Virus genome (UHGV): UHGV-0221571
Length of the DNA: 17,382 bases
Origin: a virus
Strand: one strand, 5' to 3'
Shown here: positions 2,287 to 17,215 of the stretch, one piece after another
Layout of the letters: every line of letters begins with the position of its first letter
How positions within the stretch are numbered: position 1 is the first letter of the stretch
Program-made: the position numbers and the translations under genes
The notes under the pieces: model-generated
What the model saw: only the letters and a program-made list of their open reading frames with translations
Databases searched by the model: none
What the model was told of the DNA's origin: nothing

Positions 2287-2583
2287 TTATACCTCTGAAT
2301 CAATATCAACCTGGTGGTGAGCAATGGTTTCAACCATGTACCGGATGTGTTCTGCCATGCGCTCCTGAAACTCAACATCGTCATCAAACGCACGGGTAAT
2401 GGCTTTTTTGCTGGCCCCGTGGCGTTGCAAATGATCGATGCATAGCGATTCAAACAGGTGCTGGGGCAGGCTTTTTTCCATGTCGTCTGCCAGTTCTGCC
2501 TCTTTCTCTTCACGGGCGAGCTGCTGGTAGTGACGCGCCCAGCTCTGAGCCTCAAGACGATCCTGAATGTAATAAGCGTTCAT
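2287..2583 (-). CDS. gam: RecBCD inhibitor Gam, short (GamS-length) form
   Basis: 98-aa translation [37 protein letters not shown]...[10 protein letters not shown] matches the C-terminal 98 residues of lambda Gam. The upstream in-frame sequence is ...[19 protein letters not shown] with a stop at 2638-2640, so the lambda GamL extension is absent. Confidence 0.9.
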
Positions 2584-3452: not shown

Positions 3453-5060
3453 TTAATTTATCTTTTCAACATTTCCATGAATCAACAAGTCGTAGGCAAG
3501 AAATAGTTTCCTATACTGGGTTTTTAAATTGTCAACGTCGCATGTCTTGAATTGAACAAACGCTTCTTTTTTAACATAATCTTCAATCTCCTCTTTGGGG
3601 ATATTTTTTATGTTCTTAATGACTATAGACAATTCTTTGTACTTTTTGAACTTTGCATCCTTTATATCTTTGATGTTGGTGTAAATTTTATTTGCATTGA
3701 TTTTATCTAAGGTGATTTTATTGAGCAAGTCGTCTAGTTTTCCGTGGCGTTCAATGCGTTGATTTAGTTTTAACACATATTTAGCTGGCAAACTTAACTC
3801 TTTCAAATTACATGAGGTTATAGTTTTTGAAAATGGAAGTTGTAATGAGTTTACTGAACCTAATATGAAATCTATGGCTAATTTATTAGATATTTCATTT
3901 TTATTAAATAAGTAGTCTTCAAGATAATTTATTTCTTTAACTTGTGTGAATACATACTTTTTATCGCCTAGAGCAACAACTAAATTTTTTCCTTGTTTAA
4001 CACTTTCTTCAAGTCTGTCTAAGTCAGAAGGTGAAACCAATAGAGTATCTAAGTGCCCTTTTTCACCCTCATTAATGATAAGTGTTTTAATGGCTCTTTG
4101 ATACCTTAAAACATCATAAGGTGAGAGCCCTTCATCAACAGCACTGATCTCATCATAGATCTGTTTATAGTTATCTGTTTTAACAGATGTATATGTAATT
4201 TGTAGCTGTTGATCGGTAATCTGTTTTGGTACTACTTCCTGTTCATTCTCTTTATATTCAATCAAAATTATTCTTTCAGCTGATTTTCGACCATCTTCTC
4301 TAGGTAGTTGTGAGGAAAAATCAGAAAGAAGTTTCTTTACATTCCTGTCAGTTAAAGAATATCCAAGAAAAACTATTGGATTTTTAATCATGTTAGATAG
4401 TATCTTGGCACTAATGAGTATAGATTTGTTGTCATATTTTTCGTAATCATCTTTATTTATGATTATTGAGTGTGGATCCTTTATATCACCATGTATTTTG
4501 TATAACTCACTCCAGCCAATAGTATCTTCGAAAAAACCATTATTTCCAATATAGAGTTTTGGAGTTACATTTTGCTCTTGAAGTAAATTTTCTATGAAAG
4601 CATCATAATTTGTAGTGATGATTATCTTGGCCTTTTTTATTAATGTTTTAAATGATGCTAATTCATCAAGATTTACATCCTTTCTGATTGTGTTATTAGA
4701 AAATCTTTGGCATATGGCGTATTTAAATGGTGAAATATCTTCACTAAAAACCCTCTTGGCATCTAGTCCATTTAATTTTAATTTGCCAGTCCTAAACAAT
4801 AGATTGTAATCATTTTCAATTTTACTTGCTGCCTCTGTATAAATCTTATGATCGATATCATTATCACTGTTATTTTTATGTGATTCTTTTATTGTTAAAA
4901 GATAACTATAGAAATCATTTGTGGGATTTGTTATTTTCCAATACTCGTTTAATAGCTCTTCCCACGTTGGGTAGTTCTCTAAATATCTTTTTGAAATGCC
5001 TGAGCCAATAAAGACTATTGGGTAATTTTTGAATTCAAAATTTTTTTTTGACATATCCAT
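3453..5060 (-). CDS. SIR2-like (defense-type SIR2_2) NADase-domain protein with an uncharacterised ~270-aa C-terminal domain
   Basis: 535-aa ATG-initiated ORF with AAGG 5 nt upstream. Motifs GSGIS (res 19-23), TTNYD (149-153), KIHGD (188-192) and FLGYSLTD (231-238) match the conserved blocks of defense-associated SIR2 domains such as ThsA. Visibly AT-rich relative to its flanks. Same strand as, and directly downstream of, the repressor. Confidence 0.75.
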   Translation of the reverse strand: MDMSKKNFEFKNYPIVFIGSGISKRYLENYPTWEELLNEYWKITNPTNDFYSYLLTIKESHKNNSDNDIDHKIYTEAASKIENDYNLLFRTGKLKLNGLDAKRVFSEDISPFKYAICQRFSNNTIRKDVNLDELASFKTLIKKAKIIITTNYDAFIENLLQEQNVTPKLYIGNNGFFEDTIGWSELYKIHGDIKDPHSIIINKDDYEKYDNKSILISAKILSNMIKNPIVFLGYSLTDRNVKKLLSDFSSQLPREDGRKSAERIILIEYKENEQEVVPKQITDQQLQITYTSVKTDNYKQIYDEISAVDEGLSPYDVLRYQRAIKTLIINEGEKGHLDTLLVSPSDLDRLEESVKQGKNLVVALGDKKYVFTQVKEINYLEDYLFNKNEISNKLAIDFILGSVNSLQLPFSKTITSCNLKELSLPAKYVLKLNQRIERHGKLDDLLNKITLDKINANKIYTNIKDIKDAKFKKYKELSIVIKNIKNIPKEEIEDYVKKEAFVQFKTCDVDNLKTQYRKLFLAYDLLIHGNVEKIN

Positions 5061-9264: not shown

Positions 9265-10296
9265 ATGTCCTCGAATATTTTATCTGGTGAAAAAGTAATC
9301 AATAAAATTGCTGAAAAGTTGAGCGATTATAAATATCCTCCGGCTGAAGGTATGAACTCTGAACATGTCAGCAAATGGATTAAGCAATTTGCAGTGGAGG
9401 ATAGACGATTTATCTTAGATGAAACGCTTTATCTACTTAATGCAGGTTACCTATCCGAAAGTCAATATCAACGAAAAATAAAAGCCATTGCAAGAAGTGA
9501 AAAGAACGCGAAATTCTTCAGATATGCAGGTTTTTTAGATATTCAAAAAAAAGGTTCTAGTCAGAAGGAATTGCTTAAATCTCTTTATGAAACAGTAGGG
9601 ATCAAATTTAACATCGTTACTGAATCATCAACTCAAGATGAAGTAAATAAATTTGATACATTTGTATATATTGATGATGTGTCGTTTTCAGGAGAAAAGG
9701 CCATCAAATCGATAAGTAATTTTGTTTTAAAATTTAATTTAAGAGATATTAAATTCAATGTATATTTTTTTTCATCTCATACGTTATCTGACTATAATAT
9801 AAAAAGACGATTAGAATATATTTTTAAGGATAGAAACATTTTTGTACACGTGAAGAATGGTGGTATGCGTGAGGTTGAAAACCGAAAAAGTCGTTCTGCT
9901 CAATCAGGTGTTTTCTGGCCAAGGAAATATAGTGTAGATACTCCCGAGAAATTCGAGGAGTGTGAGCTTTACAAAGGCGTATTCAGAGATGGATATGCCT
10001 CTTCTGATAGTTTTAGAAATGAAGCCTCAAGGGATCGTTTCGAATCTATCCTTACTAAAGTCGGCTTTAATATCTTGCTGCACAGGAAAACCCCTAGTGA
10101 GGTGCTCAAACCTCTAGGTTTTTCTACTTTTGACGGTTTGGGTTTTGGGGGAACAACATTTACTTATCGAAATTGCCCGAATAATGTGCCGCTGGCTTTT
10201 TGGTGGGGAGATTATGAACCAACAGGTGCTCCCGCATTGGACTGCTGGTATCCACTAATGAAGCGGAATGGGTATAATGAGTGGTATGAGCTATAG
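9265..10296 (+). CDS. Hypothetical 343-aa protein, AT-rich cargo gene; possible PRTase-type nucleotide-binding motif
   Basis: ATG 9265 with AAGGAA upstream in an AT-rich intergenic region. The stretch TFVYIDDVSFSGEK (res 132-145) resembles the PRPP-binding signature of type I phosphoribosyltransferases. No other family recognised. Translationally coupled to the NADAR gene. Confidence 0.6.
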   Translation: MSSNILSGEKVINKIAEKLSDYKYPPAEGMNSEHVSKWIKQFAVEDRRFILDETLYLLNAGYLSESQYQRKIKAIARSEKNAKFFRYAGFLDIQKKGSSQKELLKSLYETVGIKFNIVTESSTQDEVNKFDTFVYIDDVSFSGEKAIKSISNFVLKFNLRDIKFNVYFFSSHTLSDYNIKRRLEYIFKDRNIFVHVKNGGMREVENRKSRSAQSGVFWPRKYSVDTPEKFEECELYKGVFRDGYASSDSFRNEASRDRFESILTKVGFNILLHRKTPSEVLKPLGFSTFDGLGFGGTTFTYRNCPNNVPLAFWWGDYEPTGAPALDCWYPLMKRNGYNEWYEL

Positions 10297-10897
10297 ATTA
10301 TATCCGCTACAGAACACAGTTTCCTTCAGGAAAACCACCGAAAAATGGGGGGGGCTTTCCAACATGGCTAAAGGATATCCATTGTTAATCAATGGGTTGC
10401 CTATTCAATCAAGTGAAATCCTTTACCAAGCATGCCGATATCCAGACTATCCGGATATACAAAAGGCCATCATTACTCAAGGAAACCCCTATGAAGCCAA
10501 GCAGACCGCAAGATCGTTTGAATCCAAAACTCGCGCAGGATGGGATAAGAATCGAGTTTCGATTATGAAGTGGTGTGTATGCGTAAAATTATGCCAGAAC
10601 TGGGATACGTTCTTTGCGCTGTTAGACAGTACAGGCGACCATTTCATCGTGGAACACTCAGAGAAGGACCAATTCTGGGGTGCCAGTAAAGACCCAGAAG
10701 GTAACTATTATGGTATGAACGTATTAGGGCGAATTCTCATGGACGTGAGAGGGGTTGCTAGGAAAAAGGGGGCTGATGGGTTTGCAACAATACCATCGCT
10801 ATCTTTGGACAAATTTTTTCTCCTAGGCGAAAGAATTAAAGATGTAACATTTGTAGAGCCAACGCCTGGAGCAGGGCAAAGTTTATCCTTGTTTTAG
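10268..10897 (+). CDS. NADAR-domain (YbiA-like) protein
   Basis: Matches to the NADAR/YbiA blocks: GGLSNMA, INGLPIQSSEILYQACRY, AGWDKNRVSIMKWCVCVKLCQNWDTFFALLDSTGDHFIVEHSEKDQFWGA...GNYYGMNVLGRILMDVR. Start uncertain (ATG 10268, 10277 or 10286); all overlap the upstream gene. Confidence 0.8.
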   Translation: MGIMSGMSYRLYPLQNTVSFRKTTEKWGGLSNMAKGYPLLINGLPIQSSEILYQACRYPDYPDIQKAIITQGNPYEAKQTARSFESKTRAGWDKNRVSIMKWCVCVKLCQNWDTFFALLDSTGDHFIVEHSEKDQFWGASKDPEGNYYGMNVLGRILMDVRGVARKKGADGFATIPSLSLDKFFLLGERIKDVTFVEPTPGAGQSLSLF

Positions 10898-13219: not shown

Positions 13220-14302
13220 TTAGAACTGGTAAACCATACCTACAGCAACGATATCATCGGTAGCAACGCCAGATGCTTTCGTGAAATCGCTCTTATCAAT
13301 CAGGTTGATTTTGTAGTCAACAAAAGTGGACATATTTTTGTTGAAGTAATAGGTTGCACCTACATCAACATATTCAACCAGGTCCTGATCACCCCAAACA
13401 CCCAAGTCTTTTCCTTTAGAATGCAGGTAAGCAACGGATGGACGCAGGCCGAAGTCGAACTGATATTGTGCAACAGCTTCGAAGTTTTGTGCTTTGTTGG
13501 CAATATGGTTATTACCAAAAACAGTCATGTTCTGGGTTTCAGAATAGGTGGTGGCCAGATAGATGTTGTTCGCATCATATTTCAGACCAGCTGCCCATAC
13601 TTCAGCATTTTGACCAGAAGCATTCAGACCGTTGTTACCGTAGATAACCTGATTATTAGTGCGATCAGATTTAGCATAGGTTGCACCCACGCCGAATCCT
13701 TCATACTCATAAGTAGTTGAGAAACCGAAACCATCGCCATTAGCTTCAGTTACTTCATTTCGGTCATTTTTGCCCTGATACTGAGCTGCAAAGTTCAGGC
13801 CATCAACCAGACCAAAGAAGTCGTTGTTACGATAAGTTGCAACACCTGTGGTGCGACCAGTCATGAATACATCTGTTTGGGTCCAGGTATCGCCACCGAA
13901 TTCTGGCAGAACGTCAGTCCACGCACCGATGTCGTATGCTACACCGTAGTTACGGCCGTAATCGATTGAGCCGTAGTCACCGAATTTCAGGCCTGCAAAT
14001 GCAAGACGGGTTTTGTCTTTGGAGGAACCTTGAGATTCAGCGCGGTTGCCTTTGAATTCATATTCCCACTGACCGAAACCAGTCAGTTGATCGTTGATTT
14101 GGGTTTCACCTTTGAAGCCAAGACGGGCATAAGTAGTATCACCATCATCTGCATCATTAGAGGAGAAGTAGTGCTTAGCATTAACTTTCCCGTACAGATC
14201 CAGCTTGTTACTGTCTTTATTATAAATTTCAGCTGCCTGAGCAGACATCGCCATCAGTACTGATGCAGCTACAGCAGAAATTGCCACTGTTAATTTTTTC
14301 AT
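13220..14302 (-). CDS. nmpC: Outer-membrane general porin (OmpC/OmpF/PhoE family), prophage NmpC/Lc-type
   Basis: 360-aa product with signal peptide [23 protein letters not shown]|AEIYNK and C-terminal ...VAVGMVYQF ending in Phe. Typical porin sequence throughout. Sits between Q and the lysis genes as in DLP12. Confidence 0.9.
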
Positions 14303-14732
14303 CGTGAGCCCTTTTTTTTGAACTATTATTAAAAAATGATGTCACTGCGCGATAAATATTCATCTAATCAATGTGATTATTTCAAGATGTAAGTTTTGGT
14401 TTCTCGTTTAATTTGTGAAGTAGATCTCTATTTTTATCTGAACTTTTTTCTATCGAATCCTATTCATGGCTCTTGGCTGAATAAAAATAAATCTATTAGC
14501 CAATTTATATTAATGGCTGTTATTTATAAGTGCTCTATAATTTGAAGGTTCAATTTAAATTGGCTAAAAATAACGCTGGAAATTATTTGTTGGTTATTTG
14601 TTGAGATTTGCTTATGTATTTGTAGTGGTGTTTTCAATACTCGGTAGCATTCTCGCAAATATCATTTAGTGGTTTACGTACGTAAAAAATTGGTTATGCT
14701 GTTAAGAGTGGTTACTTCGTCACACAGCTTAA

Positions 14733-16087: not shown

Positions 16088-16247
16088 AACCCCGCAACCA
16101 GCCATTTCTGAACCGCTGACTTATGCGGGTAGCCTAGATTTGAATGTCAGTCTGTTGTCGGCGCTAGGGCAGTGCAATCTGGATAAAGCGGGGATCAGAA
16201 GGATAGAGGCGAGCCGGTCAGGTAGAAGTGAATCAGGCTCAAAGTGA
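15972..16247 (+). CDS. Rz1: Rz1-like outer-membrane lipoprotein spanin (o-spanin), +1 frame relative to Rz
   Basis: MMIVLYALCLLPLLTGC... signal with lipobox LLTG|C, followed by a Pro-rich mature region (VPVPAIPLPASLTAETPQP). Begins inside Rz and extends about 160 nt past its stop. Confidence 0.55.
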   Translation: MMIVLYALCLLPLLTGCESSRTVYVPVPAIPLPASLTAETPQPAISEPLTYAGSLDLNVSLLSALGQCNLDKAGIRRIEASRSGRSESGSK

Positions 16248-16317
16248 AGCGGAAAAGGTCTTCGGCATAAGGTGACGTAGTAATAATTACAGTCAACTGA
16301 CTTTTGGAACGAAGCAT
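16195..16317 (-). CDS. Candidate 40-codon ORF with a consensus Shine-Dalgarno, downstream of the T7/SP6-like promoter pair
   Basis: Minus strand: TTAAGGAGGTTCAAC-ATG (AGGAGG, 6-nt spacer). Product MLRSKSQLTVIITTSPYAEDLFRFTLSLIHFYLTGSPLSF, stop at 16197-16195. Antisense to the 3' end of Rz1. Below the ORF-track cut-off. Confidence 0.3.
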   Translation of the reverse strand: MLRSKSQLTVIITTSPYAEDLFRFTLSLIHFYLTGSPLSF

Positions 16318-16360
16318 GTTGAACCTCCTTAATTGATGTTATTTGAGTGAGGAAGGCATT

Positions 16361-16443
16361 CTGTCCTTCTAAAGTGTCACCTAAATCAAGTAGGCAACTC
16401 GTCCAACGCGTTGGACATGCCTCCCCATTAGTGAGTCGTATTG
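16361..16443 (-). promoter_or_regulatory. Tandem T7-like and SP6-like single-subunit phage RNA polymerase promoter sequences flanking a 16-bp palindrome
   Basis: Minus strand 5'-cAATACGACTCACTAATGGGGAGG (plus 16443-16421) against T7 TAATACGACTCACTATAGGGAGA: 14 contiguous identities at -16..-3. Minus strand 5'-ATTTAGGTGACACTTTAGAAGG (plus 16386-16365) against SP6 ATTTAGGTGACACTATAGAAG: one mismatch. Palindrome GTCCAACGCGTTGGAC (16401-16416) between them. Confidence 0.5.
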
Positions 16444-16583
16444 ATTGCGACTCTTCAAAGAATTCATTACTGGAGATATGAAAATGGTTTCACTACGTAT
16501 GGAGGAGGCTGTGTTTATCAGTCCCGCAGGTATTCAATGGGTGCCTGCAATAATGTTTGTGGCGGTAAACGTGTCGTGATGGG

Positions 16584-16617
16584 ATTTTGGTGTCTCGAAA
16601 GCAAAGGAGACACCAAA
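16584..16617 (+). promoter_or_regulatory. Perfect 12-bp inverted repeat enclosing the RBS of the downstream small gene
   Basis: TTTTGGTGTCTC (16584-16595) - gaaagcaaag - GAGACACCAAAA (16606-16617). The SD AAGGAG (16601-16606) lies in the loop/right-arm junction, and the ATG (16618) immediately follows the right arm. Confidence 0.45.
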
Positions 16618-16812
16618 ATGAACTATTCAAACATTATCTGCCCAACCAACCGTCTGCAGGTGACCATTCTGCATGAAAAAGATGTGCTGACTGGTATCGG
16701 TGATGCCATCGGCGAATTGCACACATACCAATGTTCACGGGAGCACGTGTGCAGCTATAGAGAAACGACGGAATGTATTGTAAGAAAGCGGGAGATTCTT
16801 CAAAACAGGTAA
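16618..16812 (+). CDS. Small Cys-containing hypothetical protein (64 aa)
   Basis: ATG 16618 with AAGGAG 11 nt upstream. MNYSNIICPTNRLQVTILHEKDVLTGIGDAIGELHTYQCSREHVCSYRETTECIVRKREILQNR. Followed by a hairpin terminator. The longer track ORF (16441 onward) starts at TTG with no RBS. Confidence 0.5.
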   Translation: MNYSNIICPTNRLQVTILHEKDVLTGIGDAIGELHTYQCSREHVCSYRETTECIVRKREILQNR

Positions 16813-16822
16813 GAACAATCAA

Positions 16823-16852
16823 AGCCATCGGTTATCAACCGGTGGCTTTTTC
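16823..16852 (+). terminator. Intrinsic terminator after the small gene
   Basis: Stem AGCCATCGG / CCGGTGGCT (one G-U pair), 7-nt loop, then TTTTT. Confidence 0.5.
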
Positions 16853-16864
16853 ATTGGAGTAGAT

Positions 16865-17215
16865 ATGCCGCCACGAACACCAAAAGCCTGCCGCGTTCGC
16901 GGTTGCCGCAATACCACTACTGACCCGTCAGGCTATTGCGAAAGCCATAAAAGCGAAGGCTGGAAGCAATACAAGCCAGGACAATCTCGTCATCAGCGCG
17001 GTTATGGTTCGAAGTGGGATGTTATCCGCGTGCGTGTCCTGAAGCGTGACAAAGGCCTGTGTCAGCTATGTCTGCGTGCTGGTGTGGCGCGTGAAGCGAA
17101 AACCGTTGATCACATCATCCCTAAAGCACATGGCGGCACTGATGCCGACAGTAATCTGCAGAGTCTGTGCTGGCCGTGTCATAAGGCGAAGACGGCCCGT
17201 GAACGGCTTAAGTGA
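16865..17215 (+). CDS. HNH homing-type endonuclease (terminase-associated HNH of cos-packaging phages)
   Basis: 116-aa product with an N-terminal Cys cluster (CRVRGC...C) and HNH core VDHIIPKAHGGTDADSNLQSLCWPCHKAKT. GGAG 6 nt upstream. Lies immediately before a terminase-like start. Confidence 0.85.
   Translation: MPPRTPKACRVRGCRNTTTDPSGYCESHKSEGWKQYKPGQSRHQRGYGSKWDVIRVRVLKRDKGLCQLCLRAGVAREAKTVDHIIPKAHGGTDADSNLQSLCWPCHKAKTARERLK

Follow-up and report, generated by a model that had tools for sequence, protein, structure and literature searches.

The stretch of DNA analyzed here (the window, 17,382 nucleotides) raises the question of how a small gene is expressed when its ribosome-binding site (RBS) and start codon lie within a perfect inverted repeat. 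The original prediction offered two answers: either an RNA structure occludes the RBS, or the palindrome is a DNA-binding site for a dimeric regulator. The window was identified as a lambdoid E. coli prophage, with a cI-like repressor, YdaS, YdaT, O, P, the Q antiterminator and a porin gene, and then holin, lysozyme, Rz/Rz1 and HNH. In identical prophages these are followed by a P27-family small terminase, the large terminase and the portal. Of 5,426 complete E. coli genomes, 20 contained identical copies of 16250-16900, in a total of 21 records. Other cargo of the prophage comprises a SIR2-like protein beside the repressor, adjacent PRTase-CE and NADAR genes within the early-right operon and, behind Q, a porin of the OmpC type (Table 1).

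A repeat finder identified two arms of 13 nt, ATTTTGGTGTCTC (16584-16596) and GAGACACCAAAAT (16607-16619), which are 100% complementary and separated by a 10-nt loop. Among perfect inverted repeats with loops of 3-20 nt, no other in the 17.4-kb window reaches this length. When 300 windows were simulated with a first-order Markov model, none contained a 13-mer repeat and 0.3% contained a 12-mer repeat. Folding of the RNA in a 56-nt context resulted in a ΔG of -21 kcal/mol (z = -4.8). The start codon is located at 16618-16620, with its A and U inside the stem, and 13 of the 19 nucleotides between -16 and +3 are paired. A perfect repeat of 12 bp, ending exactly at the ATG, had been predicted at this position. 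The repeat is indeed real and perfect, but the coordinates were off by one base: the 12-bp arms correctly span 16585-16596 and 16607-16618, and with one extra pair beyond them there are 13 pairs and not 12. The 3' arm extends to 16619 and includes two bases of the ATG. The placement of the Shine-Dalgarno (SD) sequence AAGGAG at the boundary of loop and stem was borne out, as its first three bases (AAG) belong to the loop and its last three (GAG) to the 3' arm.

Searches of Rfam gave no match for the whole window at the gathering score, and for 16150-16900 at E <= 10 only a chance-level miRNA match (E = 3.1). The hairpin was also considered as an intrinsic terminator and rejected, since the stem is followed by GAACUAUUC on the plus strand and CCCAUCAC on the minus strand, with a U-run on neither. 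A one-mismatch copy of the 5' arm (TTTTGGTTTCTC) was found in the AT-rich region between the porin and holin genes. The minus strand of this copy would complement the 5' arm; by a rough estimate ~0.1 such matches are expected by chance.

Table 1. Features of the window and copies of the boundary element in other sequences.
Feature	Position	Strand	Details	Basis
SIR2-like protein	3453-5060	-	prophage cargo	
PRTase-CE and NADAR gene pair	9265-10897	+	prophage cargo	
OmpC-type porin	13220-14302	-	prophage cargo	
One-mismatch copy of hairpin 5' arm	14394-14405			
40-aa ORF	16195-16317	-	MLRSKSQLTVIITTSPYAEDLFRFTLSLIHFYLTGSPLSF; strong SD (AAGGAGGT); antisense overlap of Rz1 3' end	
Conserved intergenic block	16318-16505			
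Perfect 16-bp palindrome	16401-16416		GTCCAACGCGTTGGAC	
Diverged copy of boundary element, 5' edge of cassette	16525-16555	+	GCAGGTATTCAATGGGTGCCTGCAATAATG; only inner 10-bp stem kept, 16526-16535/16539-16548	homology start
Extended -10-like TGcAATAAT	16546-16554		hexamer 16549-16554	by eye
Mini-uORF	16553-16579	+	ATG TTT GTG GCG GTA AAC GTG TCG TGA; stop 4 nt before hairpin base	
RNA stem-loop	16584-16619	+	13 perfect bp and 10-nt loop, enclosing SD and A and U of AUG	repeat finding, folding, simulation
Shine-Dalgarno sequence	16604-16609	+	AAGGAG, 8 nt upstream of ATG	
64-aa accessory gene	16618-16812	+	phrog_31491	PGAP call, homologues, codon bias
Predicted intrinsic terminator	16824-16851	+	10-bp G+C-rich stem 16824-16833/16837-16846, loop AUC, U5 16847-16851	
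HNH endonuclease gene	16865-17215	+	packaging module; flanking backbone outside cassette	
Element copy, L021	1505-1547			
Element copy, L051	87-129			
Element copy, L225 (phi80)	2499-2541			
Element copies, L105-L224				

The reading frame that starts in the hairpin is annotated by PGAP as a hypothetical protein in the identical E. coli prophages, with the same start codon. Its 64-aa product matched only phrog_31491, a function-unknown family (E = 5.5e-50), and had no match in Pfam, PADLOC, NCBIfam or PDB sequences; domain and family searches detected no nucleic-acid-binding domain. Very large protein searches returned few relatives, with 92, 80 and ~64-65% identity, together with a frameshifted 55-aa form. 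A search of 5.8 billion proteins led to 3 clusters and a representative library to 2. Four alleles could be distinguished: A (the window, Salmonella and L018), B (L008), C (L021) and D (L051). Protein identity to the window was 80% for allele B and ~64-65% for allele C, and allele D was more distant. The latter was reached only through a DNA pattern of the leader, and protein-pattern scans of genomes, viral sequences and metagenomes yielded no further allele.

Differences between the window and L021 were concentrated at the third codon position (14, 15 and 27 at the first, second and third positions, respectively). In the +1 frame 18 synonymous versus 23 non-synonymous changes were counted, and in the other five frames 3-13 were synonymous. 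A length of 64-65 aa was retained in all alleles, and C8, H19, H35, C39, C45 and C53 were invariant in an alignment of alleles A-C. These substitution patterns indicate coding constraint in the plus frame, and the 64-aa ORF is regarded as a genuine conserved gene. An AlphaFold2 model, based on a 3-sequence alignment, had a pLDDT of 47 and is unreliable. In-frame N-terminal extensions are present, as a 123-aa ORF is open in the window and a 91-aa form is called in Salmonella. The extended ORF was rejected as the conserved product because in allele B a TAA and an indel of 2 nt interrupt the frame ahead of the ATG. An antisense 64-aa ORF (16634-16828) was likewise rejected, as it lacks an SD and shows less synonymous bias than the sense frame. 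In the E. coli assemblies L010-L013, a 2-nt (GG) insertion at the equivalent of ~16693 converts the 64-aa gene to a 55-aa frameshifted product and leaves the hairpin intact. Judged from such copies, the cassette appears to be decaying in some lineages.

The leaders of the four alleles were folded over -38 to +3, and a stem over the translation start was obtained for each. Allele A formed a stem of 13 bp (ΔG -19.2 kcal/mol), allele B a stem of 12 bp including three G·U pairs (-12.5 kcal/mol), allele C stems of 7 and 5 bp around a 2x2 internal loop (-11.4 kcal/mol) and allele D stems of 5 and 8 bp around a 1x1 mismatch, with one G·U pair (-14.1 kcal/mol). In all four, the SD core tops the 3' arm and the A of the AUG lies in the stem base; the U of the AUG is also paired in alleles A, C and D. 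Stem and loop sequences differ completely between the alleles. At six stem positions, -4 to -9 from the AUG, both sides have changed and pairing is retained: GC and UA pairs were found at -4 and at -5, UA, GU and AU at -6, GC, CG and AU at -7, UA and CG at -8, and CG and UA at -9. As this covariation rests on four independent sequences, it is suggestive, but they are too few for a formal statistic. The apparent conservation of the 3' arm is inflated because the SD and the A-rich spacer constrain this arm anyway, and the informative part of the comparison is that the 5' arm tracks the changes in the 3' arm. A G·U pair corresponds to an A·C mismatch on the opposite strand and to a mismatch in duplex DNA, and therefore a helix in the sense-strand RNA is favoured. 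Among the two original proposals, an RNA structure that occludes the RBS is thus supported, as four diverged alleles keep a stem over SD and AUG by compensatory changes and G·U pairs.

The same comparison bears on the second proposal, in which a dimeric regulator would bind the palindrome and regulate, at the level of transcription, either the small gene or the packaging genes behind it. In favour of such an operator, the dyad is perfect in the window allele. However, the half-sites differ between the alleles (GGTGTCTC, GTGCCTTT, GAGTCTCC and GAATCTCC), and at the DNA level the dyad is imperfect in alleles B-D, where mismatched positions form G·U pairs in the sense RNA. The arm centres are 23 bp apart and the dyad lies downstream of any plausible -10. 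A search for the palindrome elsewhere, suggested as a check, did not reveal further sites: the window contains 4 matches to the half-site, which is no enrichment over the 1.8 expected (24 of 200 shuffles reached 4), and every occurrence of the palindrome among the 5,426 E. coli genomes accompanies the 64-aa gene, with a single copy per genome. A site for a dimeric regulator is disfavoured by these results and is considered very improbable. The sequence comparison favours the view that the palindrome in the DNA reflects a structure of the sense-strand RNA.

The accessibility of the start site was assessed by the opening energy, i.e., the cost of making -16 to +3 single-stranded, computed in the context of -45 to +25. 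For the 64-aa gene this cost was 17.2 kcal/mol, compared to 3.4-11.0 kcal/mol for 19 other gene starts of the window. The other copies of allele A had similarly computed values of 15.0 (Salmonella) and 16.1 kcal/mol (L018), and alleles B and C had values of 10.5 and 10.4 kcal/mol, respectively. By its computed opening energy, the stem alone is predicted to be strongly inhibitory already. When the temperature was raised, the opening energy calculated for allele A was still 15.9 kcal/mol at 42 °C and 13.7 kcal/mol at 50 °C. These high values argue against an RNA thermometer of the fourU/ROSE type, in which the RBS helix would melt between about 30 and 42 °C and the stem would open the RBS at host temperature. 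Such a function could be read into the U-run paired beside the start codon, which is loosely fourU-like, and into the mismatches and G·U pairs of alleles B-D, but on the computed energies we regard it as most improbable.

Combining these results, it is likely that the sense-strand RNA stem-loop in the leader of the inserted gene pairs the SD and the AUG and acts in cis as a translational throttle. The SD and start codon would be paired with an upstream segment that contains an anti-SD and a U-run, and as long as the helix is closed, 30S subunits would be unable to bind. In this way, translation of the inserted gene would be kept very low, or conditional, on any transcript that carries it, which would include the late transcript, abundant as a result of antitermination by Q. 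Repression of translation is what we infer from the structure, its stability, its compensatory conservation and the cassette nature of the gene.

Instead of the stem alone, a protein might control initiation by binding to the stem-loop, either as a repressor or as an activator; candidates would be the 64-aa Cys/His-rich product itself or a host factor, e.g., CsrA. MS2 coat protein acts on the replicase start hairpin, and T4 gp43 and RegA act on their operators. The arrangement found here resembles the MS2/R17 replicase operator, in which the start codon also lies, with the SD, within one hairpin and the hairpin controls initiation. The small product with conserved Cys and His residues and the GGA at the junction of loop and stem would also fit such an operator, and further precedents for protein operators are found in T4 (PMC3014915). 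However, loop and stem differ completely between the alleles, so that a sequence-specific partner would need to co-evolve, and the 64-aa protein has no detectable nucleic-acid-binding domain (AlphaFold model pLDDT 47). The MS2 hairpin has 7 bp with a bulged A and acts via the coat protein, whereas the 13-bp stem described here is inhibitory on its own according to the computed energies. A protein-bound operator is considered unlikely, and the cis-acting throttle is retained as the preferred reading.

The genomic setting of the gene was studied by comparison with related phages. In Shigella phage SfIV the flanks are 96.5% identical, but ~16510-16840 is absent and the intergenic region runs into the HNH ribosome-binding site. 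Because SfIV has no counterpart of ~16510-16840 at the same site, the hairpin, the ORF and the terminator can be regarded as an insertion. Homology among the cassette copies in different backbones starts at window position ~16525. These copies have different neighbours: in L018 the upstream gene is a 125-aa ORF, in L021 a lipoprotein-like ORF lies upstream and an extra minus-strand gene is present between the cassette and HNH, and in L051 a DUF2560-type gene lies upstream and the downstream gene is different. At the 3' end, the predicted terminator folds with a ΔG of -20.5 (z = -6.5). It was missed by a consensus terminator scan, because the scan extends the stem into the T-run. By sequence, a terminator is predicted at the same place in all four alleles, although the sequences are different. 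Hence, the hairpin with T5 that the original prediction had placed behind the gene was confirmed at 16824-16851, and its description of the gene as a compact stand-alone unit is supported by the insertion relative to SfIV and by the movement between different phage backbones. The sequence comparison identifies the unit as a ~330-bp cassette that an SfIV/HK97-like prophage carries as an insertion, with the lysis genes on one side and the HNH/terminase genes on the other.

The promoter module that the original prediction had placed upstream could not be attributed to the gene: 16250-16505 is conserved phage backbone, which SfIV shares although it lacks the gene. This region flanks a conserved minus-strand ORF of 40 aa. 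The 40-aa ORF is called in relatives and is hypothetical in phage vB_EcoS-640R1; its C-terminal half is invariant, and no family match was found for it. The intergenic block next to it is conserved in ~465 E. coli records and SfIV. Within this block, upstream of the 40-aa ORF, lies a perfect 16-bp palindrome, which differs by one base in the allele-B phages (central C to T) and could be an operator.

A promoter scan did not identify a consensus or convincing sigma-70 site for the cassette. By eye, TGgGATTTT at 16580-16588 is a poor candidate, with only a 3/6 match to the -10. The extended -10-like TGcAATAAT lies upstream of the whole stem; transcription from it would start near 16561 and the transcript would include the whole hairpin. 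A barrier of 15-17 kcal/mol would nearly silence a gene that is nevertheless conserved, and therefore some opening mechanism must exist. What triggers opening can be guessed at: ribosomes coming from upstream reading frames would be the simplest candidate, and otherwise a protein or RNA factor might act. In all four alleles, a 7-9-codon ORF that starts at the ATG of the ATAATG in the boundary element (see below) ends 0-5 nt before the hairpin, in different frames; in allele A the upstream frame is also open into the 64-aa gene. Across 98 element copies, the frame of this uORF was no longer than the other two frames. Coupling to the mini-uORF is kept as an idea of uncertain significance, and would be optional.

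The position of the hairpin within a long polycistronic late operon could also point to a role in RNA processing or stability, as a site at which RNase III or RNase E cuts the late transcript or as a protective hairpin for the cassette mRNA. A stable hairpin and a second conserved hairpin 30 nt upstream would be compatible with this. RNase III substrates typically comprise about two helical turns (~20 bp). However, the stem falls short of this, with 13 pairs in allele A and, interrupted, 12-13 pairs in alleles B-D, and the hairpin lies away from any predicted 5' end. In addition, all alleles keep the stem positioned over the SD and AUG despite the sequence change, which would not be required of a stability element. 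Processing or protection of the mRNA is thus considered quite unlikely, and translational control by the stem is kept as the preferred explanation.

Phages are known to use hairpins that sequester the RBS to control optional or intrusive genes within their operons. In the T4 genes e, soc, 49 and I-TevI, the SD and/or AUG is sequestered in a helix (PMC3014915), and an RBS hairpin is described for mobE of phage Aeh1 (Gibb and Edgell, 2009, as cited in PMC3014915). These genes share with the cassette a local helix that buries the SD and/or the start codon; translation from read-through transcripts is poor for them and would be so here. T4 overcomes the inhibition with a late promoter that lies within the 5' arm, so that the resulting transcript lacks this arm, whereas no convincing promoter was found here in or just before the 5' arm, and the phage is lambdoid and temperate, unlike T4.

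The cassette also resembles the morons of HK97 and other lambdoid prophages (Juhala et al., 2000, as cited in PMC4104026; reviewed in PMC3594210). It consists of an extra late-operon gene with its own predicted terminator, whose two neighbours directly adjoin each other in the close relative SfIV, and its G+C content is somewhat below that of the flanks. The definition of a moron includes its own promoter, and expression from the repressed prophage is a further criterion; the promoter scan gave no consensus sigma-70 site here, and the extended -10-like TGcAATAAT is part of a stem-loop element. Heavy RBS occlusion, as computed here, is not among the described features of morons. Papers on prophage sRNAs (PMC4104026 and the Pas sRNA preprint) had no bearing on the hairpin site.

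The 5' edge of the cassette is formed by a diverged copy of a near-invariant stem-loop element of ~43 nt with the consensus AAGGCATTACAGCAGGCATTCACTGAGTGCCTGTGATAATGCT. The element is present as a single copy in the window. This copy includes the extended -10-like TGcAATAAT, has a ΔG of -13.9 and was flagged as terminator-like by the terminator scan. An extended -10 promoter was not accepted as an explanation of the element, since the ATAATGC segment fits the 3' half of the outer stem just as well. With a degenerate 16-base pattern, the element was found in at least 120 IMG/VR contigs, compared to a roughly estimated ~30 expected by chance. In 105 distinct contexts ~40 nt were near-invariant and both flanks were unrelated. 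Exact copies were identified in phage phi80 at 44298-44336 (unannotated, just after rha), mEp390, Klebsiella prophages and Pectobacterium ZF40, and in 94 E. coli genomes with one copy each. The element had no family match in Rfam, and a full-text search for its sequence in the searchable literature found no paper.

In the sense RNA the element folds into an interrupted hairpin of 7 and 10 bp (ΔG -24, z = -5.0), compared to -17.4 for the antisense strand. In a covariation test 93% of the cells were paired, with no excess over shuffles; this test was uninformative because the element is almost invariant and the search pattern fixed many positions. The element is located directly 3' of the stop codons of various genes, encoding Rha, DUF2560, N4 gp49/Sf6 gp66-type, DUF2514 spanin-like and Acb2/Tad1-like proteins and lipoproteins. 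It is followed by diverse small genes in the same orientation, mostly of the function-unknown type, in the post-lysis region of temperate phages of Enterobacterales. A gene that recurrently ends at the element (L105, L126, L142 and others) encodes a protein with an Acb2/Tad1 hairpin domain, a family of anti-CBASS/anti-Thoeris sponges (E = 2.4e-18). The presence of this gene beside the element places the element in an anti-defence/accessory hot spot.

The opening energies of the genes just 3' of the element were compared with those of other genes of the same contigs. At the family level the median was 9.0 versus 7.0 kcal/mol, with gene starts downstream of the element called heuristically (L105-L224, 30-120 nt downstream). 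The fraction of families with at least 10 kcal/mol was 36% after the element and 15% elsewhere (33 and 277 families, respectively; Mann-Whitney p = 2.7e-4). Clear anti-SD/SD hairpins were present in unrelated cargo after the element, e.g., in L209, L140, L149, L190, L126 and L116. Such an arrangement resembles the PeSL 'mobile regulatory cassettes' of T4-type phages, in which a conserved stem-loop intergenic sequence lies beside unrelated novel ORFs (PMC2839356). The ~43-nt element is also short and conserved, borders unrelated ORFs and could mediate modular shuffling by recombination. It differs from PeSL in sequence and phage group (lambdoid, P22-like temperate phages of Enterobacterales) and in that it usually occurs once per genome; any promoter or recombination activity of the element is putative.

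Tentatively, these observations could reflect a modular cassette design that is undescribed so far, in which the element marks the 5' boundary of unrelated accessory genes that tend to have occluded RBSs. The element might then serve in recombination, as a linker through which cassettes are shuffled, or it might be a regulatory RNA or promoter common to them that determines, together with the RBS hairpins, when the cargo is translated. While the hairpin itself would belong to an already known kind of phage translational control, the more novel lead comes from the boundary element and from the trend towards masked RBSs among its cargo genes.

In temperate phages, lysogenic conversion and anti-defence are among the functions of accessory genes located behind the lysis genes, and in related phages an Acb2/Tad1-like gene adjoins the same boundary element. 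Little is known in lambdoid phages about how such cargo avoids disturbing the very strong late operon, and the locus described here provides a clean, mutable test case for translational masking of an inserted gene. The stem-loop at the boundary may explain how cassettes are exchanged between phages, or how they are regulated in common.
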